Below are positions 6,542-45,646 of a stretch of 64,000 bases of DNA, piece by piece. Source of the stretch: Anaerolineaceae bacterium (GTDB lineage Bacteria > Chloroflexota > Anaerolineae > Anaerolineales > Anaerolineaceae); assembly GCA_034933225.1 (NCBI GenBank), contig JAYFNV010000025.1, positions 10,457 through 74,456 of the forward strand. Direction: 5' to 3'. How positions within the stretch are numbered: position 1 is the stretch's first letter; each line of letters opens with the position of its first letter. A model generated the notes under the pieces. It saw only the letters and a program-made list of their open reading frames with translations. It did no database searches and was not told the origin of the DNA. Position numbers and translations under genes: made by a program.

Positions 6542-6547
6542 GGACCA

Positions 6548-6748: not shown

Positions 6749-6750
6749 AT

Positions 6751-7920: not shown

Positions 7921-7922
7921 AG

Positions 7923-28065: not shown

Positions 28066-28740
28066 ATGGCGAACGCATTCAAAGTGCTTGAGATCAAACA
28101 AAGCGTCTTCGAAGATAACAATCGTCAGGCAGCCCTCATCCGCGCTGAGCTCAAAAAGGACAAAGCCTTCTTGCTGAATTTAATGTCCTCGCCGGGCTCC
28201 GGCAAAACCACCACCCTCGTAAAAACCATTGAAGCCCTCAAAGATGAATTGAAGATCGGAATCGTTGAAGCGGATGTAGATTCTGACGTGGACGCACACA
28301 CCATTTCCCACACAGGGGCACGGGTGATCCAGGTGCACACCGGGGGGATGTGCCACATGGACGCTTACATGACCCAGCAAGGCCTCAAAGAAATGGGCAC
28401 GGCCGGGTTGGACCTGATCATCCTGGAGAACATCGGCAATCTGCTCTGCCCCGCTGATACAGATACCGGCGCCTCCAAGAACGCCATGATCCTGAGCGTA
28501 CCCGAGGGCGATGATAAACCCCTCAAGTACCCCCACATGTTCGAGGTGGTGGATGTACTGCTGGTGAACAAGATCGACACCGTCTCATTTTTCGATTTTG
28601 ATTTTGAGGCGCTGCGCGAGCGGGTGACCAAACTGAACCCGGACATCAAGATCATCCCCATTTCTGCCAAGACCGGCGAGGGCATCCCCGCCTGGGCAGA
28701 ATGGCTGCGAACTGAAGTGAATCGCTGGAAAAGCGAATAA
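28066..28740 (+). CDS. hypB: nickel-insertion GTPase HypB
   Basis: SD GAGGTG. P-loop SSPGSGKTT, metal-binding GGMCH, ENIGNLLCPA, NKID. Confidence 0.9.
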   Translation: MANAFKVLEIKQSVFEDNNRQAALIRAELKKDKAFLLNLMSSPGSGKTTTLVKTIEALKDELKIGIVEADVDSDVDAHTISHTGARVIQVHTGGMCHMDAYMTQQGLKEMGTAGLDLIILENIGNLLCPADTDTGASKNAMILSVPEGDDKPLKYPHMFEVVDVLLVNKIDTVSFFDFDFEALRERVTKLNPDIKIIPISAKTGEGIPAWAEWLRTEVNRWKSE

Positions 28741-28768: not shown

Positions 28769-31450
28769 ATGGCAGTGAAGCTAAAAGTTCTGGAATTTGC
28801 CAATAAGGTGGGTAAAAAGAAGATGGGCTCCAAGTCTGGCATATTGCCGACCGATCCCGAATACATGATCCTGGAACCCGTGGTCAGCGAAGAGATGGCC
28901 GAAGTGGCGCTGGGCATGGAACGCCGTGTACCGCGTTCCGCTGACGAGATTGCGGCCAACGTGGGCAATCCCCTAGAAGACGTCAAACGCCTGCTCTGGG
29001 ACCTTTCCATGGCCGGTGTCTGCTTCGTCAACAAGAAGGACGGCGTGGATAAATACTGGTACGACACCTGGGTCCCTGGCATCATGGAAATGATGACCAA
29101 CAACAAAGAGAACGTCAAAAAATACCCCCAGATCGCCGAAGCTTTTGAAGCCTACGGGCGTGTGCGCGGCAAAGCCACCGCCGGGAACTTCCCGGTGGGC
29201 GTTGGCCTGATGCGCGTCATCCCCATTGAAAGCGCCATTGACGGCAACTCTCGCAAAGCCTCTTACGAGGAAGTTTCCAAATACCTCGATGAGAACAGCA
29301 TCTTCTCAGTCTCCGATTGCTCCTGCCGTACCGTGCGCGAAAGCATGGGCGAAGGCTGCGGCCATCTGAAAGAAGACATGTGCATCCAGATGGGCCACGC
29401 CGCCGAGTTCTACATCCGCACCGGCCGCGGCCGTGAGATCACCCGTCAGGAAGCTGACGAGATCATCAAGCGCGCCGAAGAGAACGGGCTGGTCCACCAG
29501 ATCCCCAATACCGATGGACCCGGCAAGACCCACGCCATCTGCAACTGCTGCGGCTGTTCCTGCCTCAGCCTGCGCACTGCTGAAATGTTCATTAATACCG
29601 ACATGGTCCGCTCCAACTACGTCGCCCGTATTGACACTGAAAAATGTGTTGCCTGCGGCGAGTGCGTGGAAGGCTGCCATGTGAATGCACTACAACTGGG
29701 CCAGAAGATCTGCGGCAAGACCAAGATCGTGCAGGCCAAACGCGAAACCCCGCGCGATAACGAATGGGGTCCCGAGATGTGGAACACCGAATACCGCTAC
29801 AACCGCAAGGACGTGGTGGATACAGGTACCAGCCCCTGCAAGACCAACTGCCCGGCCCACATTGGCGTGCAAGGTTACATCAAACTGGCCGCGCTTGGAC
29901 GTTACAGCGACGCGCTTGAGCTGATCAAGCACGAGAACCCATTCCCGGCCGTGTGCGGACGCATCTGTCCACGCTTGTGCGAATCGGAAAGCACGCGCGC
30001 AGATATTGATGACCCCGTGGCTGTGGATGAGATCAAGAAGTTCATCGCCGAGCAGGACATGCACGCTGAACACCGCTACGTGCCCAAGAAACGCCATGAC
30101 TACGGCAACAAGATCGCCATTGTCGGCGCCGGGCCGGCCGGGCTTACCTGCGCCTACTACCTGGCCATTGACGGTTACAACGTGACCGTATTTGAAAAAG
30201 AAAAGATCGCCGGCGGCATGCTCACTCTGGGCATCCCAGCCTTCCGGCTTGAAAAGAACGTGGTCAACGCCGAGATCGAGATCCTCAAAGAGATGGGCGT
30301 TGAGATCAAATGCGGTGTGGAAGTGGGCAAAGATGTGAGTCTGGCTGATCTACGCAAGCAGGGCTACCAGGCTTTCTACATCGCCATCGGCGCCCAGGCT
30401 AGCCGCAAGCTGAACATCCCCGGTGAAGATGCCGCAGATGTGTACGGCGGCGTGGACTTTGTGCGCCGCATCAACCTGGGCGAAAAAGTTGCCCTCAAGG
30501 GCAAGGGAATCGTCATCGGCGGCGGCAACGTGGCCATTGATGTGGCCCGCAGTGCGGTTCGAGTGGGTGCTGAAGCTCTCAACCTGTACTGCCTGGAAAG
30601 CCGCAAAGAGATGCCCGCCCTGGATGAAGAAGTCCGCGAAGCTGAAGAAGAAGGCATTGTGGTCAACAATGGCTGGGGTCCCAAACGAATCCTCACCCAG
30701 AACGGCCACGTGACCGGTGTGGAGTTCAAGAAATGCCTCTCTGTTTTTGACGCCAACGGCCACTTTAACCCCAGCTACGACGAAAACGCCATCGAGATCG
30801 TCAAAGCCGATTTCGTCCTGGTCGCCATCGGCCAGTCCATTGAGTGGGGTACCCTGCTCGAAGGCGCCAGCGCTGATCTCAACCCCAACAAGACAATCAA
30901 GGCCGATGCTCTCACTTACCAGACCAGCCAGGCAGATGTCTTCGCCGGTGGAGATGTGGTCTCCGGCCCCAAATTCGCCATTGATGCCATCGCTGCCGGT
31001 AAACAGGCTGCCATTTCCATCCACCGCTTCGTGCATCCCGGCCAGAGCCTGACCATCGGCCGCAGCAAACGCCATTACGTGATGCTCAACAAAGCCGACC
31101 TGGATCTGGAAGGTTACGACCGCCAGCCGCGCCAGCGTCCGGTTGCCGCAACCTCTGTCATCAACTTCCACGATCCGCGTGCCACCTTCACTGAAGAACA
31201 GGTGCGCAAAGAGACGCAACGTTGCTTAAGCTGCGGCGCCACCGTGGTGGATGAGGCCCTGTGTGTAGGTTGTGGCGTTTGCACCACCAAGTGTAAGTTC
31301 GATGCCATCCACCTGGAACGCGTCTATGACGGCGCAGGTGTTGCCCTGGACGATATGAAACCGGTCGTCCTCAAGCAGATGCTCAAACGCAAGGTCAAGA
31401 TTGCCGGCAAGAAAATGGCTCGCTCTGTGGAATCGATCTTCAAAAATTAA
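28769..31450 (+). CDS. multi-domain Fe-S flavoprotein: N-terminal Cys-rich domain + 4Fe-4S + GltD-like NAD(P)H/FAD oxidoreductase + C-terminal 2x[4Fe-4S]
   Basis: CSCRTVR...CGH...C and CNCCGCSC clusters; CVACGECVEGC; GltD-type CKTNCPAHIGVQGY...GRICPRLCESES. Two dinucleotide folds (IAIVGAGPAGL; IVIGGGNVAID). C-terminal CLSCGATV...CVGCGVCTTKC. Confidence 0.75.
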   Translation: MAVKLKVLEFANKVGKKKMGSKSGILPTDPEYMILEPVVSEEMAEVALGMERRVPRSADEIAANVGNPLEDVKRLLWDLSMAGVCFVNKKDGVDKYWYDTWVPGIMEMMTNNKENVKKYPQIAEAFEAYGRVRGKATAGNFPVGVGLMRVIPIESAIDGNSRKASYEEVSKYLDENSIFSVSDCSCRTVRESMGEGCGHLKEDMCIQMGHAAEFYIRTGRGREITRQEADEIIKRAEENGLVHQIPNTDGPGKTHAICNCCGCSCLSLRTAEMFINTDMVRSNYVARIDTEKCVACGECVEGCHVNALQLGQKICGKTKIVQAKRETPRDNEWGPEMWNTEYRYNRKDVVDTGTSPCKTNCPAHIGVQGYIKLAALGRYSDALELIKHENPFPAVCGRICPRLCESESTRADIDDPVAVDEIKKFIAEQDMHAEHRYVPKKRHDYGNKIAIVGAGPAGLTCAYYLAIDGYNVTVFEKEKIAGGMLTLGIPAFRLEKNVVNAEIEILKEMGVEIKCGVEVGKDVSLADLRKQGYQAFYIAIGAQASRKLNIPGEDAADVYGGVDFVRRINLGEKVALKGKGIVIGGGNVAIDVARSAVRVGAEALNLYCLESRKEMPALDEEVREAEEEGIVVNNGWGPKRILTQNGHVTGVEFKKCLSVFDANGHFNPSYDENAIEIVKADFVLVAIGQSIEWGTLLEGASADLNPNKTIKADALTYQTSQADVFAGGDVVSGPKFAIDAIAAGKQAAISIHRFVHPGQSLTIGRSKRHYVMLNKADLDLEGYDRQPRQRPVAATSVINFHDPRATFTEEQVRKETQRCLSCGATVVDEALCVGCGVCTTKCKFDAIHLERVYDGAGVALDDMKPVVLKQMLKRKVKIAGKKMARSVESIFKN

Positions 31451-32469: not shown

Positions 32470-35400
32470 CTAGAGCAGGGTCACTTCCAACTTCTTTACA
32501 ACTCCATCGCGTTCAAAGATGTGACGGCTGGTTTCGGCATCCAGACGATGAACTTCCAGACCATGACCTTCCACCCGCACCACTTTTCCGTCAGCAAAAT
32601 GTACCGCCACGCCCGCAGTCGCACCGCTGCGGATTAGCACCGGCACCTGGCAAATGGAATAGGCCAATGAATCGGCAGGTAGAGGCAGATCCTGCCAGGA
32701 ATCGTCGACGGCCAGATAGCGGAAAGTGGAGGGCTGCGCCAGCAGCTCAGCGCGGTTAAAGAGCAGGAAGTCGAAGACGATCTGGCCCTCTACCACGGTA
32801 AAGCCCAACTCCGCCTGGCGGGCCAAGATCTCTTCTTTGACCATGCCAGACATGCCGGGTTGCTTGGCGCCCTGACCAGCCGGGGTGTGGCTGTAGGGGT
32901 CGGTGGGGAAGGCGCCATATTCTGCAGCAGACTTTTTGAAGCACTGACCGGCGCGCACGTCGGCATAGCGCTGCATCAACCCCTCTAAAGAAGGTTCGTT
33001 TTGGGTGCGCTGTACGGTTTCCTGCACGGCCAGCAGCAGTTTGGAGATCATGTGCCAGTAGATGCTGCCCAGCCCCTCAAAGGCAAAGAAGGTGCCGGAA
33101 CGGCCGGTAAATTGCTCGTGGTGGAAGGTGGCTTCAAAGAGCGCCTCAATGGCAGCGCCCTCTTGCTCCACCAGAGCGCTAAAACGGGCATCTTGCTTAA
33201 GGGTGGCCAGCGCAGCAGCCACATCAGCGCCGTTGCGGAAGTTGCCCGCAAAATGGTAGTCACCCAGTTCATCGCGTACCAGCAGGCTGGTATTGCCTGC
33301 TTTTTGCAGGGCGTCCACCAGTTTGAATCCACTGACATGTGCAGCAGGAACCCGGTTGCGCTCTACAAACCCTTTGAGCGGACGATCCGGGTAGAGGATG
33401 TAACTATTTTGGTCAGAACGGAAGAGCGCACTGGCACGCATGGCTGTTAGCAACCGCAAAGACTCGGCGCCATTCAGCAGACCAGAAGAGAGCACCGCCA
33501 CCTGACCTTCCAACATCTCGTAAAGGTGATTGACCGTGGCTGTGCCTGGCGCCAGGCGCAGGGTGTTGTAAGAATGGTAAAGTGCATCGGCGCGGCGGTT
33601 GGCGCGCAGAGAATGATCAATATATTGCAGGGCAAGGTCCAGGAAGTTGAGGACAGCCTGTGTATCCAGATCGGCCACCTGGCCAGATAGACCCGACTTG
33701 TAGAAGTTCCAGCGGTACTCACTCCCCGCCTGACCCAGGGCGTCCATCAGGGTGCGGCGTTGGGCATCGCTAAACTGACCCACCAGCAGCGGCAATGACT
33801 CAGCCAGAAGAGCGGCAATGCGGTCAAAAAAGCTCACCACCTCGGCATGGATGGGCAGCGTTTTAGCCTCCGCCTCCGCCAGGAAGGAACGTAAAAAGAC
33901 CACATAGCGGCGCAGATAGGCCAGGGTCACAACAGAAAGACCTTTGCCCACCAGGGCGTTATTGGCGTCGTTCCATTCGGGGCGCTGGGTGGTCATCCAG
34001 ATGCCGCCTTCAGGCACCAGATTGACCAGTTTAGCCAGCAGCAGGGTGAGCGCCTTCTCGGCCAGGCTGGCATGCAAAACGCCGCCATTGGCATCCGGGA
34101 CCAGCTTGCCGTCATTGCCCAGACGGCCAACACGTTCTTTGATCTTCTTTTCCAGCTCCCAATCGAAGCTGATGGTGGTGTACGGGTTTTGCAGGATCTC
34201 ATTGTAAGGGTTGATGCGATACGGCACATCGGCATAACTGAACATGGGCTGGTTGAGTTGTGCCAGCAGTTTGCCGGGGTGGACCCTGGCGCTGATCTCC
34301 ATCAGCTTGAGCAGATAGATGATCTGATGGTCGCTCCAGTAACCGATGTTGGCCCAGGGGTCGCCGGGCACGGGGATCTCCCAATCAATGCCGTGACGAG
34401 TGACGCGGTACGGGTTGTAGCCATCCACGGTGGTGGCGTTGAGGAAGGTGAAGATCATGCTCTCCACGTATTCCGGGTATGAAGAGGAAAGTGCCTCCCA
34501 GTTCTGGAAGATATCCCGCCAGTTGCCTTCATAATCCAACTGCTGGGAGCCATCTTTCTTCTTGATGTTGATGGAGAAGCGGTTCCAGGGGCGGCTGGGG
34601 TCGCCATGACGGCGCGAGAAGGATAGCGGCAGATATGAATTGGAGAGGCGCACCAGATCTGGGCTGCCGCTGGACTGGGCCAGCGCCAGCAGTTCTTGAA
34701 TGCGCAATTGTTCTGGCAAAGCAGCAAACCAGGCTTGCTGAGAGGTCAGAACCGCACGGTTGAGCACGGTGACAAAATCAATGAAATCGGCCTTCTCCAC
34801 TTTGTACTGCGAGGGGAAGTAGCCGCCGCGCATCTCGTTGAACATGACATTGGCAAAATGGTGCGAGGTGAGCAGCGGGTTGGCCGTCACCTGCAGCCCA
34901 TCGGCTGCGGCCACGATCTTTTGCAGGGCGGCCGTATTGGCGGCCACATCTGCTTCCAGCAGGGCGATCACCTCTTTTACAGGCTTCTTGAGCAGAGCGG
35001 TTAGGTGCACCACCTGTGAGGCATCCTGGTCCACATCGGCAACGATGTGCCAGGCTTGCCCGGCAGCGGCGGCCAGGTCAAAGCAGGCATGGGCAAAATA
35101 CCCCCCGCGCTGACCGCGCGTCTCGTGCTCGGTCTTGACCAACTCACCCGACCGGAATGCGTCCAATTGAGTGTTGGTCAGCAGCCAGGCATCAGCCTTG
35201 AGCCCCACCTGCCAGGCGACCGTGGCCAGCAGACTTTCACTGGGCTCAGCCAGATCGGTGAGCGAGGAGTTGAGGGTAAAGATGCCCAGGCCGGTGGTGG
35301 GTTCCAATTCGTTGCGTTTGTAGGCATCCAGCAGCGGACTGAAGATGTTCTGGGTCTGGTCAGAAACGTTGGCAGGCAGCAGGTTTTGCAGGCCGTCCAG

Positions 35401-35937
35401 CACTTCAATGCTGCACGGAGTTTCTGCCTGGTTGTCCAGCCAACTGCTCTTGACGAAGCCAAAGGCATCCCCGCTGCGCCAGGCATAGCGGAAGGTCAGC
35501 CCCAGAGTATGGTTGACCTCTTCAAAGACCAACACATTGCCGGGAATGTTCTTGTACAGGTTTTGTTCAATGGAATACAGGCTGGCCTGCCGGCTGGAGA
35601 AAGGCTCCCACAAAGAGCGTTTCTGCCCACGGGTCACCAGCAACAGCGTGCGTGGGCCGGTGTTCTCGCTGTTCTCGGTCAGTTTATCAACGGTGTAGTA
35701 GGGGAAGAGGGCATGCGCCGCATTGATGCGTCCGGCAGAAAGGCCGCCCGTGGAGGAAATGAACATCCAGTGGTTGGAGCTGCTCACCAGGCTCATAAAG
35801 AAGGGCGGCATGGCGGGGAAATGCTGGACCTTGTAGAACGGTTCCCCCAGCAGGTGAACGTACTCTCCCTGAACGTTTTGTTTTTGGTTATGGTACAAAG
35901 TGTCAGCCACAAAAATCGAGGGAGTATTTGCGCTCAT
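32470..35937 (-). CDS. large (1155 aa) conserved-looking hypothetical protein, possibly a GH94/GH15-like (alpha/alpha)6-barrel glycan hydrolase/phosphorylase
   Basis: SD AGGAG 5 nt upstream. No TM or signal peptide. Motifs NWRDIFQNWE and RPEWNDANNAL resemble the RDxxQD and DWND motifs I associate with GH94-type barrels. Weak assignment. Confidence 0.6.
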   Translation of the reverse strand: MSANTPSIFVADTLYHNQKQNVQGEYVHLLGEPFYKVQHFPAMPPFFMSLVSSSNHWMFISSTGGLSAGRINAAHALFPYYTVDKLTENSENTGPRTLLLVTRGQKRSLWEPFSSRQASLYSIEQNLYKNIPGNVLVFEEVNHTLGLTFRYAWRSGDAFGFVKSSWLDNQAETPCSIEVLDGLQNLLPANVSDQTQNIFSPLLDAYKRNELEPTTGLGIFTLNSSLTDLAEPSESLLATVAWQVGLKADAWLLTNTQLDAFRSGELVKTEHETRGQRGGYFAHACFDLAAAAGQAWHIVADVDQDASQVVHLTALLKKPVKEVIALLEADVAANTAALQKIVAAADGLQVTANPLLTSHHFANVMFNEMRGGYFPSQYKVEKADFIDFVTVLNRAVLTSQQAWFAALPEQLRIQELLALAQSSGSPDLVRLSNSYLPLSFSRRHGDPSRPWNRFSINIKKKDGSQQLDYEGNWRDIFQNWEALSSSYPEYVESMIFTFLNATTVDGYNPYRVTRHGIDWEIPVPGDPWANIGYWSDHQIIYLLKLMEISARVHPGKLLAQLNQPMFSYADVPYRINPYNEILQNPYTTISFDWELEKKIKERVGRLGNDGKLVPDANGGVLHASLAEKALTLLLAKLVNLVPEGGIWMTTQRPEWNDANNALVGKGLSVVTLAYLRRYVVFLRSFLAEAEAKTLPIHAEVVSFFDRIAALLAESLPLLVGQFSDAQRRTLMDALGQAGSEYRWNFYKSGLSGQVADLDTQAVLNFLDLALQYIDHSLRANRRADALYHSYNTLRLAPGTATVNHLYEMLEGQVAVLSSGLLNGAESLRLLTAMRASALFRSDQNSYILYPDRPLKGFVERNRVPAAHVSGFKLVDALQKAGNTSLLVRDELGDYHFAGNFRNGADVAAALATLKQDARFSALVEQEGAAIEALFEATFHHEQFTGRSGTFFAFEGLGSIYWHMISKLLLAVQETVQRTQNEPSLEGLMQRYADVRAGQCFKKSAAEYGAFPTDPYSHTPAGQGAKQPGMSGMVKEEILARQAELGFTVVEGQIVFDFLLFNRAELLAQPSTFRYLAVDDSWQDLPLPADSLAYSICQVPVLIRSGATAGVAVHFADGKVVRVEGHGLEVHRLDAETSRHIFERDGVVKKLEVTLL

Positions 35938-36142: not shown

Positions 36143-38512
36143 TCATTCAGCCTGTTCAAATGAACGCAAGGCTTTGGCAATGAGGGCTTTCACCACCTGC
36201 ACCTTGGCCTTGTTGCGCGCCAGCGGCTGAGTAGCTCTCACAGCCAGGGCGGCGGCATCAGCGGCAAGCGCATCGCTGAGCGGCTTGCCTTCTAAAAAGG
36301 TTTCCACCTCTTGCATGCGCATGGGCACAGGCGCCACTGCTCCAAGCACCACCCGCACATTGTGCAGGCTTTTCCCCTCAACGCTGGCACGCAAGGCCAG
36401 ACTGACAATGGGGAAATCAATGGAATTGCGGATACGGAATTTGAGGTAGGTCTGGCGGCTGCCGGCTTCTGCGGGCAGATGGATGGACTCGATCAGTTCA
36501 TCTGAAGCCAGAACAGTGGTGCTGCTCTCGCGGGCGGCAAACAGCTCTGCTGCGGGCAACGTGCGCTCTGTAGTTTTGATCGTTGCGTCCAGGGTGATGA
36601 GTGCAGGCGCCAGATCGGAACAACTAACGGCCACACAACCGCAATTGGCGCAGCGCAATGCCTCCTGAGTCACGGTTTCTGGAGTGAAGGTCAGAAAATC
36701 TCCACGCTGAAGATCGTGCTCAACAACAGGGGTCTGCGGGGTTACGGCTGCCTGGCTGGTTGTCAGTGCGGCAGCATTGATCTTGAGGAACTTCTTGCCT
36801 TTTTCCTCTGCGGCGGGTTCTGGAGTAGCAACCAGGTAGCGGTCCATGAATACAGAGGTTTCTGCACCTTCAGCCATGGCCTGCACAATGTTGACGGCCC
36901 GCCCGGTGGCATCACCGCCGGCGAAAACACCCACTAAATTGGTGGCACGGCTGACCTTATCTACTACCAGCAAGCCGCGCTCGACCTGCAACAGCGGCTC
37001 TGCATAGCTCAGGTCGGCTGCCTGGCCAATAGCCACCAGCACCTGGTCCGCTTCGACTATTTTCTTCTCAGCCGGGTCAAAGGTGGGGGCAAAGCGGTGG
37101 TCTTTGTTGAACACGGAGGTGCAGCGCACCAGCTCAATGCCGGTGAGGGTACCGTTCTTTTCCAGCACGCGGTCAGGACCCCAGGAGGGCAGGATCTCAA
37201 TGCCATCGGCATGCGCCATTTCAAGGTCTTCGGGTAAGGCGGGCATGATGTCCAGACTTTCCAGACAGGCCATGCTCACATGGGCGGCGCCCAGGCGTTT
37301 GGCGGTGATGGCCACATCCACGGCCACACTGCCGCCACCGATGACCAGCACACGCTTGCCCACGGGGGTCGGCTTTTTGAGTTGAACGTTGAGCAAAAAT
37401 TCCAGGCCGGAATCGAGCAGTTCGCCCTTCTCCAGTTTCAGTTTTCTAGAATTCCACAGACCGGTGCCCAAAAAGACCACATCGTGGGAGGCTTTCAGGC
37501 TTTCCAGGCTCAGGTCCCCTGCGCCAATTTTGGCGTTATAGACAAAGCGAATGCCCATCTGCTCCAGAGCGCGTACCTGTTTCTGCACCACTTCTTTGGG
37601 CAGGCGGTACCCCGGAATACTGTAGGTGAGCATACCGCCGGCTTCCGCCATTTGCTCATAGACGGTCACGATGTGACCCTGGCGGCGCATGAAGAAAGCT
37701 GCCGTCAGACCTGCCGGGCCGGAGCCCACAATGGCCACCGTCTTGCCGCTCTCTTTGGCTGGAGCGGGGTAATAGGTGGAGACATGCTCCAGCGAGTAAT
37801 CGCCCAGGTATCGTTCTACGTCGCGGATGGCCACGGATTCATCAAAGTCGTGGCGGTTGCATTCGCTCTGGCAGTTGTGCGAGCAGATTCGCCCTGTGAT
37901 GGCTGCCAGCGGGTTGGTGCGCAGCAGGATCTCAGTTGCAGCAGCAACATCCTGCCCGCGCAGCTTTTCCATGTAATCGGGGATGTTGTTATGGATGGGG
38001 CAGCCGCGTTTGCAGGGCGCTGCCTCCACACACATGCCGCCGTAGATGGAATGATAGCGGTTCTCCGCAAAGAGGGCATCACACCAGCGGCCGCCTTTGC
38101 GCAGACAATTGAAGTGATTTTCAGGGTTGCGGTAATACCAGCAGCGCGGTTCCTGGCACAGGTTGCCCGCCAGGGTGGCTACATTACGGATCTGCGGTGA
38201 AGCCACAGAGACCGCCGCCTGCGCCAACAGGGGATACCTGGCTTTGATGAGCGGATTCCTGGCGATCTCGGCCAGGGTGGTCAGCGCGCCGAGGCTGACG
38301 CCGCCCGCCTCTTCTTGAATATCGCCCTGCCCTTTGACGGCTTTGAGGCCGATGAGCAGTTCAGGCTGTTGGGCATGGATGGCGTCTTTCATGCCGCCCA
38401 ACAGATCAGTTCCGCCGGCCAACACTTTGGCGCGGCCGAGGTTCTCTTTGAGCAGCTTCCTGGCGCTGCTGAGGTCTTCTGCAGGGATGTACTGGATGGG
38501 TTGGATTTTCAT
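36143..38512 (-). CDS. molybdenum-hydroxylase FAD subunit (CoxM/HcrB type, with 4-Cys loop) carrying an inserted GltD-like Fe-S/FAD/NAD(P)H module
   Basis: aa 1-160 form the FAD_binding_5 type region (KVLAGGTDLLGG, NVATLAGNLC) with CQEPRCWYYRNPENHFNCLRKGGRWC. aa ~161-620 are GltD-like (CKRGCPIHNNIP, GRICSHNCQSECNR, VAIVGSGPAGL, VIGGGSVAVD). aa ~621-789 resume the CoxM fold (CVAVSCSDLAPALITLDA..., CO-DH flavoprotein C-terminal domain). Confidence 0.8.
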   Translation of the reverse strand: MKIQPIQYIPAEDLSSARKLLKENLGRAKVLAGGTDLLGGMKDAIHAQQPELLIGLKAVKGQGDIQEEAGGVSLGALTTLAEIARNPLIKARYPLLAQAAVSVASPQIRNVATLAGNLCQEPRCWYYRNPENHFNCLRKGGRWCDALFAENRYHSIYGGMCVEAAPCKRGCPIHNNIPDYMEKLRGQDVAAATEILLRTNPLAAITGRICSHNCQSECNRHDFDESVAIRDVERYLGDYSLEHVSTYYPAPAKESGKTVAIVGSGPAGLTAAFFMRRQGHIVTVYEQMAEAGGMLTYSIPGYRLPKEVVQKQVRALEQMGIRFVYNAKIGAGDLSLESLKASHDVVFLGTGLWNSRKLKLEKGELLDSGLEFLLNVQLKKPTPVGKRVLVIGGGSVAVDVAITAKRLGAAHVSMACLESLDIMPALPEDLEMAHADGIEILPSWGPDRVLEKNGTLTGIELVRCTSVFNKDHRFAPTFDPAEKKIVEADQVLVAIGQAADLSYAEPLLQVERGLLVVDKVSRATNLVGVFAGGDATGRAVNIVQAMAEGAETSVFMDRYLVATPEPAAEEKGKKFLKINAAALTTSQAAVTPQTPVVEHDLQRGDFLTFTPETVTQEALRCANCGCVAVSCSDLAPALITLDATIKTTERTLPAAELFAARESSTTVLASDELIESIHLPAEAGSRQTYLKFRIRNSIDFPIVSLALRASVEGKSLHNVRVVLGAVAPVPMRMQEVETFLEGKPLSDALAADAAALAVRATQPLARNKAKVQVVKALIAKALRSFEQAE

Positions 38513-38521
38513 GGCATCGCC

Positions 38522-40870
38522 TCAGATGATTCCCAGAGCTTTGAGAACGCGGTCAGACGAAATGGGCAGTTCGTCCACTCGTACGCCAATGGCGTTGTAA
38601 ACGGCATTGGCAACAGCACGCGGTGTACAGGTAAGCGTCCCCTCGCCGATGCCGCAGGCACCGTATTCACCATCCCCGCGCCAGATCTCCAGCAGCACCG
38701 GTTCAACCGGCGGCATATCCAGAATGGTGGGGATCTTGTAATCGATAAAGTTGAAGTTGAGCGGGATGCCGTGCACCGGGTCGTAAATGATCTCCTCGGA
38801 CAGGGCTTCGCCAAGGGCCATCACCTGGCCGCCGATTTGCTGTGCTTCAGCGCCGGAGGCATACATGACCGTGCCGCAGTCATTGATGATGACCAGTTTG
38901 AGCACCTGGGTGCGGCCGGTGGCAGTATCCACTTCCACTTCAGCAAAACTGGCAATGTAAGGAACTCCTGTCTTGGTGGTGGAAGGTCTGCGGCTGACGA
39001 ACACAGAAAGGGGCACCAGGTCGCCTTTCCAGAGCAATTGCTGAACAGTAATTGCTTTTCCCGCACCACTGATGACGCCGTTGTGGATATCCAATTTCTC
39101 AGCAGGCACTTCCAAAACGGGGGCGGCCAGGGCCAGCAGCTTCTGCTTCATTTCTTTGGCGGCCACCACCATCACTTCTGATTGCAAAAATGAGACAGCG
39201 CTATCGGTCTGCACACAATCGCGCATACCAGAGTCAGTATCAATGGTACCCACCCAACTGATCTGCTCCGGGTGGATGCCCAGGAAACCCAGGGCTTCTG
39301 CACAACCCAGCACGTTGCAGGTGTTGGAGCCCGTGCCCGTTTCCACGGTGGGAGCGTCCAGGGTCACGGTGCCATCGGGGTAAAGGGTCATCTTCACCTG
39401 TACCTGGCCGCGGCGTTCTTCCTGCCATTCGGCGTGCCAGCCAGGGTGCATAGAAAAACCCACCCCGCGCCGTTTGGTGCCCTCAAAAACGGGACCCTCA
39501 CCAGGTTTATGGCGTTTTTCAGCCCAGCCAATGCGGCTAGCCCCGGCAGCAAGTACGCCCTGCAAACTTTTATCTGGGACGGTTCCCCAGGCGTGGGTGA
39601 AGTTCTTGACGGCCAGATCAACTGGGTCCATGTTCAAACTTTCAGCAATGCCGTCTATCATGCGTCCGAAGATGAAGTTGAACTGGCTGTTGCCCACACC
39701 GCGCATCATACAACCGGGAATATGGTTGGTATACACGGCATAAGATTCCATTTTGATGTTGGCAACGGGAGCCAGGGCAGCCTCTGCGATCTCTGCTGGA
39801 GCGAATTTGAGAGCAAAAACTGAATGATCGGCATGAGCGCCAATATCGCCAATGGATTTGAATTGCAGCGAGGTGATGGTACCATCCCTGGTGGCGCCGG
39901 CCTTGCAGTGATACAGCGCCGGTTGACGGGTATCATGAAAACTATCGCGGCGTGAGTGTTTGAACTTGACCGGACGGCCAGCTTTTTTAGCGATCAGGGC
40001 GGTGAAGAGGAAGAAGGGCTGGTCGCCGGTATCGGCGCGGCCAAACTGGCCGCCCACATATTTGCTGACCACGCGCACATTGTGGATGGGAAGCTGCAGC
40101 ATCTGGCTCACGTGCATGCGTGTCTGATCGGCAGCATAAGAGTTGGAGACAACGGTTAATTTATCTCCTTCCCACTGGGCCACGCAGCACCAGGGGTCAA
40201 GAGAACCCTGGGTGGGGTTATCATGCACGGTATCCATTTCCAGCACCACATCCGCGTTCTTAAATCCGGCGTCAACATCGCCTTTCTCAAAGAACACATC
40301 CGGCCCGCCGACTGGGTCTGGCGGCAGTACATTTTTGCTGGTTACCTGGGGGTGAATGATCGGCGCATCCGGTTGCATGGATTGGATGGGGTCCATCACA
40401 AAGGGCAGCACTTCCCAGTCCACTTCAACCAGACGCAGGGCCTTCTCTGCGATCTGTTCGGTTTCAGCCGCCACTACCACGCCAACTTCATCGCCGGCCC
40501 AGGTAGCGTAATCACCCAATACGCGGCGGTCACGGAACTTGCGCCACATCATCCCCTCATAGCTGACGGTATCCACGGCGTCTGTCCAACCGGCGTTGGT
40601 GAGTTTGGTTCTGGCGACTTCTGGGTCTTGATACGTGAGGATGGCCTTCACCCCGGGCAAAGCTTCTGCCTTGCTCACATCCAGGCTCTTGATCCTGGCA
40701 CGCGGGTAAGGGCTGCACAGCACACGGGCATGCAGCAGGCCGGGGAAAGCTTTGTCTGAGATCATGTCATCGGCATAGGGCGCCTTGCCCTGGGCCTTCT
40801 CGTAGGCATCCACTCTGGGGCGGTAGCCGCCCACAAACTTACGGTCTATTCTGGGTTTATAGGTGGTCAT
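38522..40870 (-). CDS. molybdopterin-binding large subunit of a xanthine-dehydrogenase-family hydroxylase/reductase
   Basis: 782 aa. N-terminal aldehyde-oxidase a/b hammerhead pattern (GKAPYADD, HARVLCSPYPRARIKSLD). ATGA overlap with the small subunit. Confidence 0.9.
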   Translation of the reverse strand: MTTYKPRIDRKFVGGYRPRVDAYEKAQGKAPYADDMISDKAFPGLLHARVLCSPYPRARIKSLDVSKAEALPGVKAILTYQDPEVARTKLTNAGWTDAVDTVSYEGMMWRKFRDRRVLGDYATWAGDEVGVVVAAETEQIAEKALRLVEVDWEVLPFVMDPIQSMQPDAPIIHPQVTSKNVLPPDPVGGPDVFFEKGDVDAGFKNADVVLEMDTVHDNPTQGSLDPWCCVAQWEGDKLTVVSNSYAADQTRMHVSQMLQLPIHNVRVVSKYVGGQFGRADTGDQPFFLFTALIAKKAGRPVKFKHSRRDSFHDTRQPALYHCKAGATRDGTITSLQFKSIGDIGAHADHSVFALKFAPAEIAEAALAPVANIKMESYAVYTNHIPGCMMRGVGNSQFNFIFGRMIDGIAESLNMDPVDLAVKNFTHAWGTVPDKSLQGVLAAGASRIGWAEKRHKPGEGPVFEGTKRRGVGFSMHPGWHAEWQEERRGQVQVKMTLYPDGTVTLDAPTVETGTGSNTCNVLGCAEALGFLGIHPEQISWVGTIDTDSGMRDCVQTDSAVSFLQSEVMVVAAKEMKQKLLALAAPVLEVPAEKLDIHNGVISGAGKAITVQQLLWKGDLVPLSVFVSRRPSTTKTGVPYIASFAEVEVDTATGRTQVLKLVIINDCGTVMYASGAEAQQIGGQVMALGEALSEEIIYDPVHGIPLNFNFIDYKIPTILDMPPVEPVLLEIWRGDGEYGACGIGEGTLTCTPRAVANAVYNAIGVRVDELPISSDRVLKALGII

Positions 40871-41397
40871 TTGGCCTCTCCCTTAGCCGTCAGTTTTTCT
40901 GCGGCATGCAGCACGGCCATTGAAATCCCACTGTAGCAACCGCAGCGGCATAAGTTGCCTGCCAGAGCTTCGCGGATCTCTTCCAGGGTAGGAGCGGGGT
41001 TCTCGTTCAGGAGTGCTCGCGTGGTCATCACAAAGCCGGGGGTGCAATAACCGCATTGTAAGGCAGTCCCGTGGCCGGGCTCGCTTTGTTCAGCAAAAGC
41101 CACGATCACCGGGTCATCTTTAGGCAAGCCTTCAATGGTGAGCAGGTCGTACCCATCGGCTTCTACGGCCAGGAGCATACAGGAAAGGACAGCCTTCCCA
41201 TCCAGAAGAATGGTGCAGGCACCGCAGGCGCCTTCATCACAACTCACTTTGAGGCCGGTGTAGCCCAGGCGCTCCCGCAGGAACTCAGAGAGGGTGGTGG
41301 AGGGATAAAGATCGCGTCCTACGTCAAAACTGTGCCACTCGCCATTGATCCGCATCTTGATCCGTTCATTGGGGATGGTTTCAGAATTAATAGGCAA
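40867..41397 (-). CDS. 2x[2Fe-2S] small subunit (CoxS/HcrC type)
   Basis: CDEGACGACTILLDG, CGYCTPG, CRCGCY. TTG start with AAAGGAGGT 4 nt upstream. Confidence 0.9.
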   Translation of the reverse strand: MPINSETIPNERIKMRINGEWHSFDVGRDLYPSTTLSEFLRERLGYTGLKVSCDEGACGACTILLDGKAVLSCMLLAVEADGYDLLTIEGLPKDDPVIVAFAEQSEPGHGTALQCGYCTPGFVMTTRALLNENPAPTLEEIREALAGNLCRCGCYSGISMAVLHAAEKLTAKGEAK

Positions 41398-41493: not shown

Positions 41494-42543
41494 TTATACT
41501 AGCCAACAAGCATGTTCGGGGAAACTCACCACAACTTCGTTGCCAGTTTGCGGCAGGACCAGGCGTCTTTCATTGAACAGGTCGGCACTCACCATGGCGC
41601 CGCCCAGGTCCACGCGCATGCGCACCACTGACCCCAAAAAGAGGATGGATTCCACCCGGCCGCGCAGAGTATTGCGGCCTTCACCTGTGCCGATGTGTAG
41701 CTCTTCCGGTCGGATGGCCAGGCGCGGGGTAGCGCTGATGCTGCGGCTGGGGTCGTGTTCAAACTTCACCGTCTGACCGGCCAGTTTGCAGGTGCCTTTT
41801 TCCAGAACGATATCTGTGACGGGGATGAGGTTCAACTGGCCCACAAATTGCGCCACAAACTCTGTGGAGGGGTAATTGTAGATGGTTGCGGGCGTGCCCA
41901 CCTGCTCCATGTGACCCTGGCTCATCACCACTACCCGGTCAGAGAGCAGCAAGGCTTCTTCCTGATCGTGGGTCACATACACCGTGGTGATGCCCATGGT
42001 GCGCTGAATGCGGCGGATCTCCAACCTCAGCTCCACGCGGATCTTGGCATCAAGAGCAGAGAGCGGCTCATCCAGCAAGAGCACGTTGGGGTTGATGGCA
42101 AGGGCGCGCGCCAGAGCGATGCGCTGCTGCTGCCCACCGGAAAGCTGGTAGGGATACTTATCAATATGTTTTTCCAGATGCACCAGTTCCAGCATCTCTT
42201 TTACCTTGGTCTTCACCTCGGCTTCAGGCATCTTGCGCACTTCCAGCCCGAACCCAATATTCTGCCCGATGGTCAGGTTGGGGAACAAAGCGTAAGACTG
42301 GAACACCATGCCCACATTACGGGCATTGGGCGATTTATAGGTAATGTCTTCACCGTTAAGTGTGATGGTGCCAGTGCTTGGCATTTCAAAGCCTGCGATC
42401 ATACGCAGCGTGGTGGTCTTGCCGCAGCCAGAAGGTCCGAGAAAAGAGACGAACTCTCCCTTTTCCACATCCAGGTTGAAATCTTCCACCGCGACCGCAG
42501 ATCCGAAGACCTTGGAAATATTTGCTAAAGAAAGATAGGTCAT
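41494..42543 (-). CDS. ABC transporter ATP-binding protein (PotA/FbpC-type importer ATPase)
   Basis: Walker A GPSGCGKTT, signature LSGGQQQR, Walker B LLLDEPLSALD, plus a C-terminal TOBE-like regulatory domain. Confidence 0.9.
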   Translation of the reverse strand: MTYLSLANISKVFGSAVAVEDFNLDVEKGEFVSFLGPSGCGKTTTLRMIAGFEMPSTGTITLNGEDITYKSPNARNVGMVFQSYALFPNLTIGQNIGFGLEVRKMPEAEVKTKVKEMLELVHLEKHIDKYPYQLSGGQQQRIALARALAINPNVLLLDEPLSALDAKIRVELRLEIRRIQRTMGITTVYVTHDQEEALLLSDRVVVMSQGHMEQVGTPATIYNYPSTEFVAQFVGQLNLIPVTDIVLEKGTCKLAGQTVKFEHDPSRSISATPRLAIRPEELHIGTGEGRNTLRGRVESILFLGSVVRMRVDLGGAMVSADLFNERRLVLPQTGNEVVVSFPEHACWLV

Positions 42544-42583
42544 AATTCACCGTGTATTTTCGTAGAGTATTGTCGGGCAGAGA

Positions 42584-43381
42584 TCATCTTGCGCCGGCAA
42601 GAGAACCGCTATCTGCTTTACCGCGGTTGAACAACTGGATCAATCCCATGAAGGCCCAGGTAAACATAAAGCTGATGATGGCCAGGGAGGAAGACTCATA
42701 GGTTCTGTTCTGGCCCACAAGGGACATGTAGGGACCAAAAGCCTTGATCCCCACCATGAAGCTGGCGATTGTGTACTCCCCGATAACAGTTGCCAGGGTG
42801 AGAAAGGCACTGCTAAGGACCGCTACCTTGAGGTTGGGCAGTATGATCTTGAACATAATGGTGGCCCAGTTGGCGCCCAAACTCTGGGCTGCCTCGGTGA
42901 GGGCGCGCACATCTATAGCGGCCAGGCCGGTATCAACGGAACGGAAGACGTAGGGCAGGGCTAACACAACATAGGCTGCCACCAGCAGCACGTCCGTGCC
43001 AATAAAGGAATTGGTCAGGAAGAACGGCGCACCGCTGAAGACGCGGATGAGGCCAAACACCAACACAATGGCCGGTACCACAAATGGCAGCATGGATATG
43101 AATTCCAACATGCCACGCAGTTTGGGCAGGCGCAGGCGGATCCAATAGGCCGTGGGGACGACCAGCAAAATGCTCACGATGATGGTGAAGACCGCGATGA
43201 TGAGCGAGAACTCGATGGTGCTCCAGAAATTGGGATCCTTGAATACGTTCTGATACGAGAGAAAAGATAAGACGCCTTTTTTGGCTCTTAACGAGAAATC
43301 AAAAGTTGAATACAACGGCAGAACAAAGTAGATCGTGCCGAGAATAATCCAAAGCCAGGACCAAAAGGATTTTCGCTTCAT
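42584..43381 (-). CDS. ABC transporter permease (PotC-like)
   Basis: Six-helix permease with an EAA-type loop (TEAAQSLGANWATIMFKIILP). I prefer the ATG at 43381 (ATGA overlap with the upstream stop) over the track GTG at 43393. Confidence 0.85.
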   Translation of the reverse strand: MKRKSFWSWLWIILGTIYFVLPLYSTFDFSLRAKKGVLSFLSYQNVFKDPNFWSTIEFSLIIAVFTIIVSILLVVPTAYWIRLRLPKLRGMLEFISMLPFVVPAIVLVFGLIRVFSGAPFFLTNSFIGTDVLLVAAYVVLALPYVFRSVDTGLAAIDVRALTEAAQSLGANWATIMFKIILPNLKVAVLSSAFLTLATVIGEYTIASFMVGIKAFGPYMSLVGQNRTYESSSLAIISFMFTWAFMGLIQLFNRGKADSGSLAGAR

Positions 43382-44289
43382 TGGCGCAGCCACCTTTCGC
43401 TTCTACGTCGGAGGATGTAATAGATCGACATCATCACTGCCATGACGAACACCATCCCAATTGCCAGGGCATAGCCCAGGCCGGGATTGTAATAAATATC
43501 ACCCTTGATCTGCGAGCCGATGACGATGGTGATAAGGTTGATAAAACCACCCGTCAGGGAGTAGGCAGTGGCATAAGCGCCGAAGGAGTTGCCAAACAGC
43601 AGGATCATAGAGCCAAGGATCGAAGGCATCAAAATGGGCAATGCCACCTTGCGCCAGTAAACGGCATTGGTGGCGCCCAGGTTCTGGGCGGCTTCGCTCC
43701 ATTCTTTCTTCAACCCATCCAGTGCCGGGGTAATGACCAGCACCATCAGGGGGAACTGGAAGAACATATAGGTCAGCGAAAGGCCCCAGAAACTGTACAG
43801 ACTAAACCCCTGATCATAAAGGTTTAGCCCGAACACATTCTTGAGTAATAAGGTCACCAGGCCTGTGCGTCCCAAAGTGGCGATAAACGCGAAAGCCAGC
43901 GGTACGCCGGCAAAGTTTGAGGCCACACCAGAGAAGGTCATCAGGCTGGAGCGAACACCCTTGGGCAATTTACCCACAGTGACCGCATAGGCCATCAAAA
44001 ATCCCAACAGACCGCCGCCAAGCGCGGTGGTGAGGCTGATCTTGATGGTGACCCAGTAGGCACTGAGGATAGATGGATCGAACAGCCCTTTGAAGTTCTG
44101 CAGGGTGAATTGGCCGGCATTGTTCTGGAATGCGCCCACCAACAGGGTAACAGAAGGCAGCACGATGAACAGGAAGGCGAACAGGAAGAAAGGTACCACC
44201 CCCAACCAGTTTCGCCACGGCAAAGGTGCGGGACGCGCTTTGCGCGCGTCCCGTTTTTCATTTACATTTGCATCGATCTTATTTGACAT
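43378..44289 (-). CDS. ABC transporter permease (PotB-like)
   Basis: EAA loop SEAAQNLGATNAVYWRKVALP. I prefer the start at 44289 (MSNKID...), which overlaps the SBP stop (ATGTCAAATAA); the track start at 44379 lies inside the SBP gene. Confidence 0.8.
   Translation of the reverse strand: MSNKIDANVNEKRDARKARPAPLPWRNWLGVVPFFLFAFLFIVLPSVTLLVGAFQNNAGQFTLQNFKGLFDPSILSAYWVTIKISLTTALGGGLLGFLMAYAVTVGKLPKGVRSSLMTFSGVASNFAGVPLAFAFIATLGRTGLVTLLLKNVFGLNLYDQGFSLYSFWGLSLTYMFFQFPLMVLVITPALDGLKKEWSEAAQNLGATNAVYWRKVALPILMPSILGSMILLFGNSFGAYATAYSLTGGFINLITIVIGSQIKGDIYYNPGLGYALAIGMVFVMAVMMSIYYILRRRSERWLRQ
44230..44258. other. strong GC-rich hairpin just downstream of the SBP gene, inside the first permease codons
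   Basis: GGGACGCGC-tttgc-GCGCGTCCC (perfect 9-bp stem). The T run is on the plus (antisense) side only. Confidence 0.5.
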
Positions 44290-45403
44290 CTGCGCCCACG
44301 ACCGACATCCATTGGTCACCGATGAGTTGTTTGGCTGCATTGATCTGGTCAATGCTCGGGAAGGCCACGGGGCCATCAAAGGTAGGCAGCTTGGCAGCGA
44401 TCTCAGCGGGGATCACACCACGGGTCTGCATATCTTTGTAGCGGATGGGGTGGCAGTAACCCTTCATCCAGATATTCTGACCTTCATCACTGTAGAGGAA
44501 TTCTTCCCACAGTTTGGCAGCATTGGGATGGGGAGCGTAAGCAGAAATTGCCTGAATATAGATACCGGCGATGGTACCGCTCTTGGGGTAAACCACGGCA
44601 ATATTGGGGTTGCCAGCCAGGGTATCTTTATCGGCCAGAGCGCTGTAGTCCCAGCGCAGAATGATGGGGGTCTCGCCCTTGGCGACGGTCGCCTGTTTGG
44701 CAATGACCGGCACAAAGTTACCCGCTTCATTGACCTGTTTGAAGAAGTCAAGGCCAGGTTGGACAGCATCCAACGAACCGCCGTTGTAGATGGCTGCCGC
44801 GTAAACAGACATCTGAGCCTGAGCAGAAGCGCGGGGATCACCGGCTAAAGCAAATTGGCCTTTGTACTCTTCTTTGAGCAGGTCAGCCCAGTCAGCAGGG
44901 ACGTTGGTAACAACATCACTGTTCACTTCCAGGGCTAATACACCGTAGTAATCGCCATACCAATAGCCGTCGGGGTCTTTTGAATCAGCCGGGATGGAAT
45001 CCCAGGTGGAGACTTTGTAGGGCATGACCAGTTTGTCAGCGATCAGTTGGGGACCAAAACCATAGCCCACGTCAATGACATCTGGTGCCTGCGGGCCCTT
45101 GTTGTCTTTGTTGGCAACAATAGCCTGGATCTCATCCGCAGAACCCCCATCAGGGTTGAGTTCGTTGATGGTAATTCCATACTTGGCTGAGAAGGTGGAG
45201 AGCGCTTCACCGTAGTTGCACCAATCGTGTGGAAGTGCGATTACCGTCAGATTACCTTCTGCTTTGGCCGCCGCAACAAGTTCATCCATGGCAGCATTAC
45301 CGGTTGAGCTCGTTGTTGTGGTTGTTTTGGCACATGCAGCCAAAAACAGCGACGCAACGATTAAAACAGTAACAACACCGAACAGGGTTTTAGTGCGCAT
45401 CAT
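44279..45403 (-). CDS. ABC transporter substrate-binding lipoprotein (family-1, PotD/AfuA-like)
   Basis: Lipobox LFLAAC|AK followed by a Thr/Ser linker. Size and pattern of family-1 solute-binding proteins. First gene of the minus-strand block. Confidence 0.85.
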   Translation of the reverse strand: MMRTKTLFGVVTVLIVASLFLAACAKTTTTTSSTGNAAMDELVAAAKAEGNLTVIALPHDWCNYGEALSTFSAKYGITINELNPDGGSADEIQAIVANKDNKGPQAPDVIDVGYGFGPQLIADKLVMPYKVSTWDSIPADSKDPDGYWYGDYYGVLALEVNSDVVTNVPADWADLLKEEYKGQFALAGDPRASAQAQMSVYAAAIYNGGSLDAVQPGLDFFKQVNEAGNFVPVIAKQATVAKGETPIILRWDYSALADKDTLAGNPNIAVVYPKSGTIAGIYIQAISAYAPHPNAAKLWEEFLYSDEGQNIWMKGYCHPIRYKDMQTRGVIPAEIAAKLPTFDGPVAFPSIDQINAAKQLIGDQWMSVVGADVK

Positions 45404-45646
45404 ATTCTCCTTATTTAAGATAAAAAATCAGTTAAGCGCTTGCTTAACTGAAATTCTCAAAATAATCCCTAGCTTGCTTTTTCTTTCAAGCTTACAGAAC
45501 TCACTCGTTCTTTGCGGTCATATTTCTTACAATAAGGTATTCGATTAGGGTACATATCCATCCTAGATATTAATTATTATACACGATAGGGCAATACCCC
45601 TTATCGGACAAAATTCCATAATAATCAGTAAATCGCAACCAAAACT

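Follow-up and report, generated by a model that had tools for sequence, protein, structure and literature searches.

An NAD(P)H-module cassette inserted in the iron-sulfur loop of a CoxM-type flavoprotein subunit, and the NAD(H)-linked molybdenum enzyme that it would form in an Anaerolineaceae bacterium

What is a complete pyridine-nucleotide module doing in the middle of the flavoprotein subunit of a molybdenum hydroxylase? The question is raised by a stretch of 64,000 nucleotides from an Anaerolineaceae bacterium (assembly GCA_034933225.1, contig JAYFNV010000025.1, positions 10,457 to 74,456), which we analyzed as a whole and call the window; positions below are counted from its first letter. 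The open reading frame at 36143..38512 on the reverse (-) strand, the strand of all features of its gene cluster described below, encodes a composite medium subunit of 789 aa (here M), a flavin adenine dinucleotide (FAD) subunit of the CoxM/HcrB/PaoB type with an internal GltD/NfnL-like cassette. The best overall explanation, which we consider fairly probable, is that M and its partners form a molybdenum enzyme wired in a straight line to NAD(H) and most likely working in the oxidative direction, the direction being the least secure step.

The open reading frame is intact and begins with ATG. Its Pfam domains are FAD_binding_5 (aa 6-120), with a second, weaker stretch of the same family further on, Fer4_20 (aa 163-242, 2.7e-22), Pyr_redox_2 (aa 258-549, 1.1e-25) and CO_deh_flav_C (aa 695-772), which agrees with a preliminary description of this DNA as encoding a molybdenum-hydroxylase FAD subunit with a pyridine-nucleotide/FAD/Fe-S module inside it. 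We then deleted aa 161-615 in silico and compared the remaining 334 aa with chains in the Protein Data Bank (PDB). The spliced protein gave one unbroken alignment, over residues 3-325, with 5y6q_B, the aldehyde oxidase medium subunit from Methylobacillus (E 2.4e-39), and it also aligned continuously, end to end, with HcrB (1rm6_B, 3.7e-30) and PaoB (5g5g_B, 3.9e-27); these are its top three PDB matches, and all of them carry the Cys loop discussed below. Because M without aa 161-615 aligns continuously with three solved medium subunits, we conclude that the cassette is an insertion within the CoxM fold and not an end-to-end fusion, as the preliminary description had also held.

The N-terminal part of the CoxM fold (aa 1-160, 38033..38512) carries the FAD motifs AGGTD (32-36) and T113-x2-G116-N117, of which G33, D36, T113 and G116 are invariant in a broad family alignment. 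The inserted cassette (aa 161-620, 36653..38032) comprises Fe-S, FAD and putative NAD(H) domains and a poorly conserved linker (aa 561-615, with a mean identity of 29% among close relatives). The rest of the CoxM fold, including CO_deh_flav_C, occupies aa 627-789 (36146..36634) and is continuous with the N-terminal part in the alignments to 5y6q_B, HcrB and PaoB. The nucleotide positions first assigned to the cassette and to the Cys loop (aa 119-144, 38081..38158) were correct.

The position of the cassette within the fold is best seen from the cysteines. The Cys loop lies where it was first placed, but the four Cys that it holds, C119, C124, C136 and C144, are not all ligands of the cluster: C119 is variable across the family, as are C161 and C631, and the fourth ligand is predicted to be C626, on the far side of the cassette, so that the loop would supply three of the four ligands of the host [4Fe-4S] cluster (C124, C136 and C144). 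When M is aligned with HcrB, C124, C144 and C626 fall opposite Cys122, Cys138 and Cys155, Y153 falls opposite Cys146, and C136 has no counterpart. We take the [4Fe-4S] ligands of HcrB to be Cys122, Cys138, Cys146 and Cys155, which fits the numbering of the alignment. In PaoB and 5y6q_B, by comparison, four Cys each align with C124, C136, C144 and C626, and the spacing of the loop in M is of this type. The alignments place the splice point inside the predicted host [4Fe-4S] loop, between its third (C144) and fourth (C626) Cys ligands, with the cassette of about 460 aa ending a few residues before C626. The loop had been read as the hallmark of the 4-hydroxybenzoyl-CoA reductase (HCR) beta subunit, but it is not peculiar to HCR, given that the best match is aldehyde oxidase 5y6q_B, the spacing is that of PaoB, and Cys146 is replaced by Tyr. 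Because the loop matches the oxidative PaoB type at least as well as HcrB, it says nothing about a reductive direction.

Conservation was judged in 30 family members that share 34-80% identity. C124 and C136 of the loop are invariant and C144 is kept in 29 of the 30; within the cassette, C167, C171, C210, C214 and C218 are invariant; and at the return junction C621, C624 and C626 are present in every member, as are E617 and R620. A single glutamate, E233, joins this set, being found in 29 of the 30 distant members and in all 121 close relatives. The conserved residues make up exactly 12 predicted ligands (11 Cys and E233), enough for three cubane clusters and no more, and M would accordingly be expected to bind two FAD and three [4Fe-4S] clusters, an occupancy that we infer from these motifs.

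Within the Fer4_20 domain (aa 163-242, 37787..38026), C171, C210, C214 and E233 are predicted to hold the cluster proximal to the cassette FAD, and C167 and C218 would go to the distal cluster. The Bfu-type NfnA chain 9bov_A aligns with M over the Fe-S domain with no gap, and the published ligands of its FAD-proximal cluster A7, Cys108, Cys147, Cys151 and Lys170 (PMC11829005), map to C171, C210, C214 and E233; E233 also aligns with NfnB E126 and StnC K170. The signature EAxRCxxC, which normally opens the module in canonical GltD and in dihydropyrimidine dehydrogenase (DPD), is missing at the front of the cassette, where the sequence starts C167-x3-C171-P, and is found instead at its back as E617-A-L-R620-C621-A-N-C624. 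The same permutation is seen in StnC, NfnA and E. coli YgfK, and RCxxCGC also follows the cassette in 9bov_A and 9n5u_A. Because the signature has been moved to the back, C621 and C624 would complete the distal cluster with C167 and C218, giving the predicted distal set C167, C218, C621 and C624, of which the last two are placed by motif homology alone. The junction motif C621-A-N-C624-G-C626 (36635..36652) would in this way serve two clusters, C621 and C624 being predicted for the distal cluster and C626 for the host cluster. Since a single Gly separates C624 from C626, we infer that the host and distal clusters are close neighbors, well within tunneling distance, if the ligand assignments are right.

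A structural model is consistent with one compact protein. AlphaFold2, given a diverse family alignment of 56 sequences, produced a model of M with a mean predicted local distance difference test score (pLDDT) of 88.9, a predicted template modeling score (pTM) of 0.87 and no segment below 50, and these values indicate that M would be one rigid unit and not a string of loosely linked domains. An alignment of only 24 close sequences gave a much worse model (pLDDT 68, pTM 0.49), in which the Fe-S loops fell below 50. In Foldseek searches the solved chains each span about half of the model at most (best TMq 0.56), and the model superposes on NfnL 5jca_L with a root-mean-square deviation (rmsd) of 2.3 A over 429 columns.

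The cassette itself is a GltD/NfnL-like module of the permuted subtype, with both the Fer4_20 domain and the adrenodoxin-reductase-like FAD/NAD(P) domain present. Its strongest PDB matches are NfnA of the Bfu type (9bov_A, 2.6e-79; 9n5u_A, 8e-78) and StnC (8oh5_C, 5e-75), followed more weakly by NfnL (5jca_L, 5e-62), GltD (2e-50) and DPD (4e-38); in bit scores, it reaches 270 against the StnC/NfnA type and 213 against NfnL. The FAD and pyridine-nucleotide domains (aa 258-549, 36866..37741, Pfam Pyr_redox_2) offer a clue to the coenzyme. In NfnB, Y310-R311-R312 holds the 2'-phosphate of NADPH, and kinetics have shown that DsrL with this YRR motif uses NADP(H) only and DsrL without it uses NAD(H) (PMC7596348). 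The motif is absent from the window protein, in which C416-L417-E418 stands opposite Y353-R354-R355 of 9bov_A, and all 121 close relatives keep L417 and E418. Because CLE replaces the NADPH-phosphate motif, we predict that M uses NAD(H) and not NADP(H); the NAD(P)H coupling first proposed for the module is retained in that narrower form. Across the 30-member family, positions 416-418 read CLE in 19 and YRR in 10. So clean a split into two states speaks for a functional nucleotide pocket, and it suggests that changes between NADH and NADPH use have been repeated or are ancient.

A second protein with the same permuted cassette is encoded in the window at 28769-31450 (+). It has 893 aa, with CLES in the YRR place, Lys at the proximal-ligand position, Ser for the third Cys of CxxxCxxxC, RCLSCG ahead of a C-terminus that resembles ferredoxin, and a Fer4 motif in an N-terminal part of 350 aa. 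A CobW/HypB-like GTPase gene lies upstream of it at 28066-28740 (+).

M is encoded together with CoxS- and CoxL-like genes, as expected for the three-subunit enzyme first proposed. The small subunit S (40867..41397; Pfam Fer2_2 and Fer2) is CoxS-like, would carry two [2Fe-2S] clusters, and holds both Cys motifs, CDEGACGAC...C and CGYC...CRC; its best PDB matches are 4zoh_C (3e-42) and CoxS 1n5w_A (7.5e-38), and its listed reading frame begins with TTG, the probable true start being the ATG at M14, about 41358. The large molybdopterin subunit L (38522..40870; Pfam Ald_Xan_dh_C, MoCoBD_1 and MoCoBD_2) is CoxL/XdhA/HcrA-like, has an a/b-hammerhead and two Moco-binding domains, and contains the predicted catalytic site, with the motifs MMR390GVG and GIGE743G, the active-site Glu being placed by motif. 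Its best PDB match is HcrA 1rm6_A over the full length (2.1e-64), and against NCBIfam it scores 411 bits for XdhA (cut-off 780) and 348 bits for HCR alpha (cut-off 994.55), both below the cut-offs. The genes lie on the same strand, S and L overlapping by 4 nt and L and M separated by 9 nt. By every criterion testable from sequence, S, L and M are a three-subunit molybdenum enzyme of the CoxSML type in the xanthine oxidase (XO) family. Directly upstream and in the same direction, at 41494..45403, Pfam and NCBIfam matches identify an ABC importer consisting of a binding protein, two permeases and an ATPase that has a TOBE_2 domain, presumed to be the uptake system for the substrate of the enzyme.

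From these parts we propose the following mechanism. A complete cassette of the GltD/NfnL type, with two [4Fe-4S] clusters, FAD and a pyridine-nucleotide site, would have been spliced into the binding loop of the host cluster, and C621-x2-C624-G-C626 at the return junction would tie the distal cluster of the cassette to the host cluster. Electrons would then have a linear path running from the molybdenum cofactor through [2Fe-2S] I, [2Fe-2S] II and the CoxM FAD to the host [4Fe-4S] cluster, and from there through the distal and proximal clusters and the GltD-like FAD to NAD(H). The host cluster is where free ferredoxin docks in enzymes of the HCR type; in M an NAD(H):Fe-S oxidoreductase that is part of the subunit would take the place of this ferredoxin, and the window enzyme, being of the CLE form, would use NAD(H) and link the molybdenum site to the cellular NADH pool. 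The role of the cassette is likely to be linear and non-bifurcating because StnC and NfnA-Bfu carry it in a NuoG-like scaffold as a plain NADPH entry: StnC shows the cassette in another scaffold as a non-bifurcating, plain NADPH entry point (PMC10482914), and in DPD and glutamate synthase a GltD module passes NAD(P)H electrons via clusters to a second flavin (PMC8097209).

The architecture is not confined to the window. In a search of 5.8 billion proteins, at least 120 protein clusters with the same Pfam set and lengths of 758-811 aa were found among the matches listed, and a library clustered at 50% gave about 27 more distant full-length representatives (34-48% identity) with the same architecture. 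A protein identical to M is present in an independent assembly, and closer variants with 74-96% identity exist elsewhere. One metagenomic protein of 1730 aa (P0127) has L and M fused, the molybdenum domains spanning aa 28-744 and M beginning near aa 902, in what is a gene call and may be a read-through. The family members checked are all metagenome-derived and bear only generic database names, no NCBIfam model reaches its cut-off for M, and no description of the fused CoxM/GltD architecture was found in the literature searched; the early statement that no characterized example is known is upheld to this extent.

Gene context was compared in 10 loci. S and L genes occur near M in nine and directly adjoin it in eight. 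The contig of L004 begins just upstream and shows L alone, and that of L085 is short, with nothing but a cut, unidentified gene before M. L003 and L004 are full-architecture matches, among those listed, in a genome-contig scan with unspecific patterns. Two Anaerolineae loci, L001 and L002, have the importer, S, L and M in the same order as the window, with identities of 60-62% for M, 79% for L, 76-82% for S and 78-94% for the ABC transporter proteins, and M is therefore evolving much faster than its partners. All of its domains have diverged to a similar degree, the very variable linker (aa 561-615) excepted, and on this ground a recombinant or chimeric origin, considered as a cause of the low identity of M between close genomes, was rejected. 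More distant members have S and L beside M but with TRAP or major facilitator superfamily (MFS) transporters, other gene orders and other neighbors. Because the L subunits of these distant loci are only 25-29% identical to that of the window, M looks like a general electron-transfer subunit serving molybdenum enzymes of differing specificity.

Two further loci were noted. In L091 (5614-15284, metagenome, YRR type), a beta-elimination lyase of the tryptophanase/tyrosine phenol-lyase family lies directly upstream of the S-L-M genes, which are followed by an MFS transporter and an amidohydrolase; from this context, that lineage may break down an aromatic or N-heterocyclic product, for instance indole or phenol. 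In L024 (9140-16127, from a Latescibacterota metagenome-assembled genome), there is an unfused version, in which an 841-aa protein has an N-terminal NuoG-like Fe-S part and a GltD-like domain; next to it come a plain CoxM of 300 aa that lacks the Cys loop and a fused CoxS-CoxL of 1000 aa.

In which direction would the electrons run? Hydroxylation or dehydrogenation of an imported organic substrate with reduction of NAD+ seems most likely. We lean toward it because transporter genes adjoin the enzyme in several loci, because the beta-elimination lyase and the amidohydrolase of one locus (L091) are what the breakdown of an imported heterocycle would call for, and because typical hydroxylase substrates reduce NAD+ easily, with no need for coupling. 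The catalytic Glu motif present in L was likewise counted for this direction. Coenzyme type was considered as a guide to direction, by analogy with DsrL, and rejected, since the context of the YRR-type L091 looks catabolic and oxidative.

Several points weigh against the oxidative, linear reading. L has its best solved relative in HcrA, a reductive enzyme; UcdO, a reductive dehydroxylase, retains the catalytic Glu as well (PMC11760930); and the choice between NAD(H) and NADP(H) does not fix the direction. E233 is the ligand type of bifurcating NfnL and not that of non-bifurcating StnC. The closeness of the host and distal clusters is predicted from the two-residue spacing of C624 and C626 and from ligands assigned by homology, and we found no published list of ligands for the distal (A6/C6) cluster of StnC or NfnA in the StnABC supplement or in two Nfn-Bfu papers. 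The importer's binding protein has only weak matches to known families.

The alternative that fares best keeps the same anatomy and reverses the flow, and we regard it as possible but decidedly less probable than the oxidative reading: in an NADH-driven reductive dehydroxylase, like HCR or Ucd, electrons would pass from NADH to low-potential Fe-S clusters, FAD, [2Fe-2S] clusters and molybdenum, and a hydroxyl group would be removed from an aromatic or heterocyclic substrate. The full-length match of L to HcrA points this way, as do the place of the host subunit within the [4Fe-4S]-bearing clade that includes HcrB and the presence of acyl-CoA synthetase and beta-oxidation genes near the distant locus L003. 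The hcrCAB genes have the order S-L-M, as here. UcdCFO, moreover, is an XO-family enzyme in which dehydroxylation is stimulated by NAD(P)H (PMC11760930). Against this, S, L and M all score far below the cut-offs of the HCR equivalog families (beta, for M, 161 vs 404.55; gamma, for S, 131.6 vs 257.8), the Cys pattern is of the PaoB type with HcrB Cys146 replaced by Tyr, and no CoA ligase or benzoyl-CoA pathway genes were found near the window cluster or in L001 and L002. Judged by its scores, by the one changed ligand and by its genomic context, S-L-M is not a member of the HCR equivalog families. No sequence feature tells the two directions apart.

Flavin-based bifurcation or confurcation, which the preliminary description had raised, is in our view unlikely. 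One FAD would couple NAD(H), the couple at the molybdenum site and a third partner such as ferredoxin, and the branching point might, with the same low probability, be either the GltD-type FAD with its Glu-ligated proximal cluster or the CoxM FAD flanked by [2Fe-2S] and [4Fe-4S] clusters. E233 (29/30) is the Glu of NfnL rather than the Lys of StnC, NfnA-Bfu and YgfK, R303 is conserved and equivalent to NfnB R201, and the CoxM FAD lies between two one-electron carriers, all of which would suit such a role. However, R303 is kept in bifurcating and non-bifurcating relatives alike, and the cassette is nearer to the non-bifurcating StnC/NfnA type (270 vs 213 bits), in which bifurcation has been lost. 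An NfnL-type FAD also needs a second exit, the [2Fe-2S] cluster and a-FAD of NfnS, and no NfnS/NfnA-like small subunit is adjacent in the window or in the nine related loci, the neighborhoods that the inspection covered; a partner might be encoded elsewhere in the genome. The NADPH motif used by NfnL is absent from M, and typical hydroxylase substrates reduce NAD+ without coupling. Should the doubtful case for bifurcation nevertheless prove right, this would be the first XO-family enzyme with flavin-based electron bifurcation or confurcation.

The weakest alternative, that a frameshift, misassembly or chimeric contig joined a CoxM gene to a GltD-like gene, has a negligible probability: we found no evidence for it, the CoxM fold resumes after the cassette as no end-to-end join can make it do, the same architecture recurs in at least 120 clusters and, as an identical protein, in another assembly, and the junction residues are invariant across 34-80% identity.

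We return to the window for what surrounds the enzyme. Downstream of M, after a gap of 205 nt, a gene at 32470-35937 (-) encodes 1155 aa with no Pfam match, assigned by NCBIfam as a GH149 beta-1,3-glucan phosphorylase (1536.8 bits, cut-off 1150); it is not kept downstream of M in relatives and appears to be unrelated to the molybdenum enzyme. Another neighbor in the window is a phosphate transporter. In the leader of the ABC operon, a hairpin with a 10-bp stem followed by a T-run (45428-45451, -) separates a promoter-like site (45489-45462) from the binding protein gene, which starts at 45403, and it would suit an attenuator or a riboswitch terminator; an Rfam scan of the whole window, including the leader upstream of the ABC operon, gave no match. 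Farther away, a cellulose-synthase-like cluster at 2612-10130 (-) includes a 1309-aa protein in which five MshEN (c-di-GMP-binding) repeats are joined to a glycosyltransferase of family 2, together with a degenerate GGDEF protein and a BcsB homologue.

The architecture matters in several ways. It is widespread in uncultured anaerobes and appears unstudied. In the [4Fe-4S]-bearing branch of the XO family, to which HCR and PaoABC belong, the role of the extra cluster and the identity of the physiological redox partner have been under debate, and in the family of M the redox partner would be covalently built in, making the electron-gate role of that cluster directly testable. For the assembly of redox enzymes, the permuted GltD cassette of the Stn and Nfn-Bfu NuoG-like subunits is found here in a different Fe-S loop, and in both hosts, NuoG-like and CoxM, one CxxCGC motif would stitch guest and host clusters together. 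The CLE form, predicted to use NADH, and the YRR form, predicted to use NADPH, amount to a natural experiment on coenzyme choice. The enzyme and its importer are conserved in many Anaerolineae genomes from anoxic habitats, and the enzyme probably marks an unrecognized catabolic capacity of these abundant, mostly uncultured fermenters.

How does the enzyme compare with known systems? HcrCAB of Thauera aromatica (1RM6) is also a three-subunit enzyme of the XO family with an extra [4Fe-4S] loop beside the flavin of its FAD subunit, HcrA is the best solved match of L, and Cys122, Cys138 and Cys155 of HcrB correspond to C124, C144 and C626. Unlike M, however, HCR has no GltD-like insert and takes its electrons from a free ferredoxin, and M has Tyr at the place of Cys146. 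An enlarged beta subunit in the HCR of obligate anaerobes (Geobacter PcmRST) was considered, found no support in the literature searched and was dropped; Gmet_2134-2136 are organized as in T. aromatica (Butler et al. 2007). PaoABC of E. coli (5G5G) and the Methylobacillus aldehyde oxidase (5Y6Q) share the four-Cys spacing of C124, C136, C144 and C626, but in them the third Cys leads to the fourth with nothing inserted; both act oxidatively on aldehydes, and their L subunits are more distant. PaoB reportedly binds a [4Fe-4S] cluster, and PaoABC is periplasmic, whereas no Tat signal was seen in the window enzyme.

The closest solved relatives of the cassette are StnC of StnABC (8OH5) and NfnA of NfnABC (9BOV, 9N5U), at E values from 1e-75 to 1e-79. 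In both, the c/d Cys precede the permuted cassette and RCxxCGC follows it, and in them, too, the cassette is inserted in another Fe-S scaffold as a linear nucleotide entry. They differ in their host, a NuoG/Fdh-like subunit that belongs to a bifurcating complex of the HydBC type, and in having Lys at the proximal cluster, YRR and NADPH. No HydB/C-like genes were found near M in the window, L001 or L002, the host is CoxM and the ligand is Glu, so M is not of the Bfu-NfnA/StnC type. The NfnSL (NfnAB) transhydrogenase shares the cassette fold (rmsd 2.3 A to 5jca_L) and the Glu on the proximal cluster; however, it needs the second exit through NfnS, is specific for NADPH through YRR, and has its first CxxC pair at the N-terminus, unpermuted. 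DPD and NADPH-glutamate synthase have a chain of NAD(P)H, FAD, [4Fe-4S] clusters and a second flavin serving the catalytic site (PMC8097209), but that flavin is flavin mononucleotide and acts on the substrate directly, there is no molybdenum, and the GltD module sits at a terminus or forms a subunit of its own. UcdCFO, the urolithin C dehydroxylase of Enterocloster, is an XO-family enzyme of an anaerobe that is stimulated by NAD(P)H (PMC11760930), but its FAD subunit is plain, with neither Cys loop nor insert.

The nearest functional parallel is XdhD-YgfM-YgfK of E. coli, an unfused counterpart in which the gene for YgfK, a protein of the same permuted GltD type (30% identity over aa 165-636), neighbors those for a CoxM-like FAD subunit and for a Mo/Fe-S subunit of the XO family. 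The E. coli proteins are separate, YgfK has a ferredoxin-like C-terminus, a large N-terminal domain, YRR and Lys, and YgfM lacks the Cys loop. The K-12 record annotates no defined function for the three, and we know of no biochemical characterization of them. GltS, DPD, Nfn and AegA/YgfT are the only cases named in a review of GltD-like modules from 2021 (PMC8097209). From these comparisons, we conclude that the architecture of M is real, conserved and so far undescribed, and that it is built from well-known parts.

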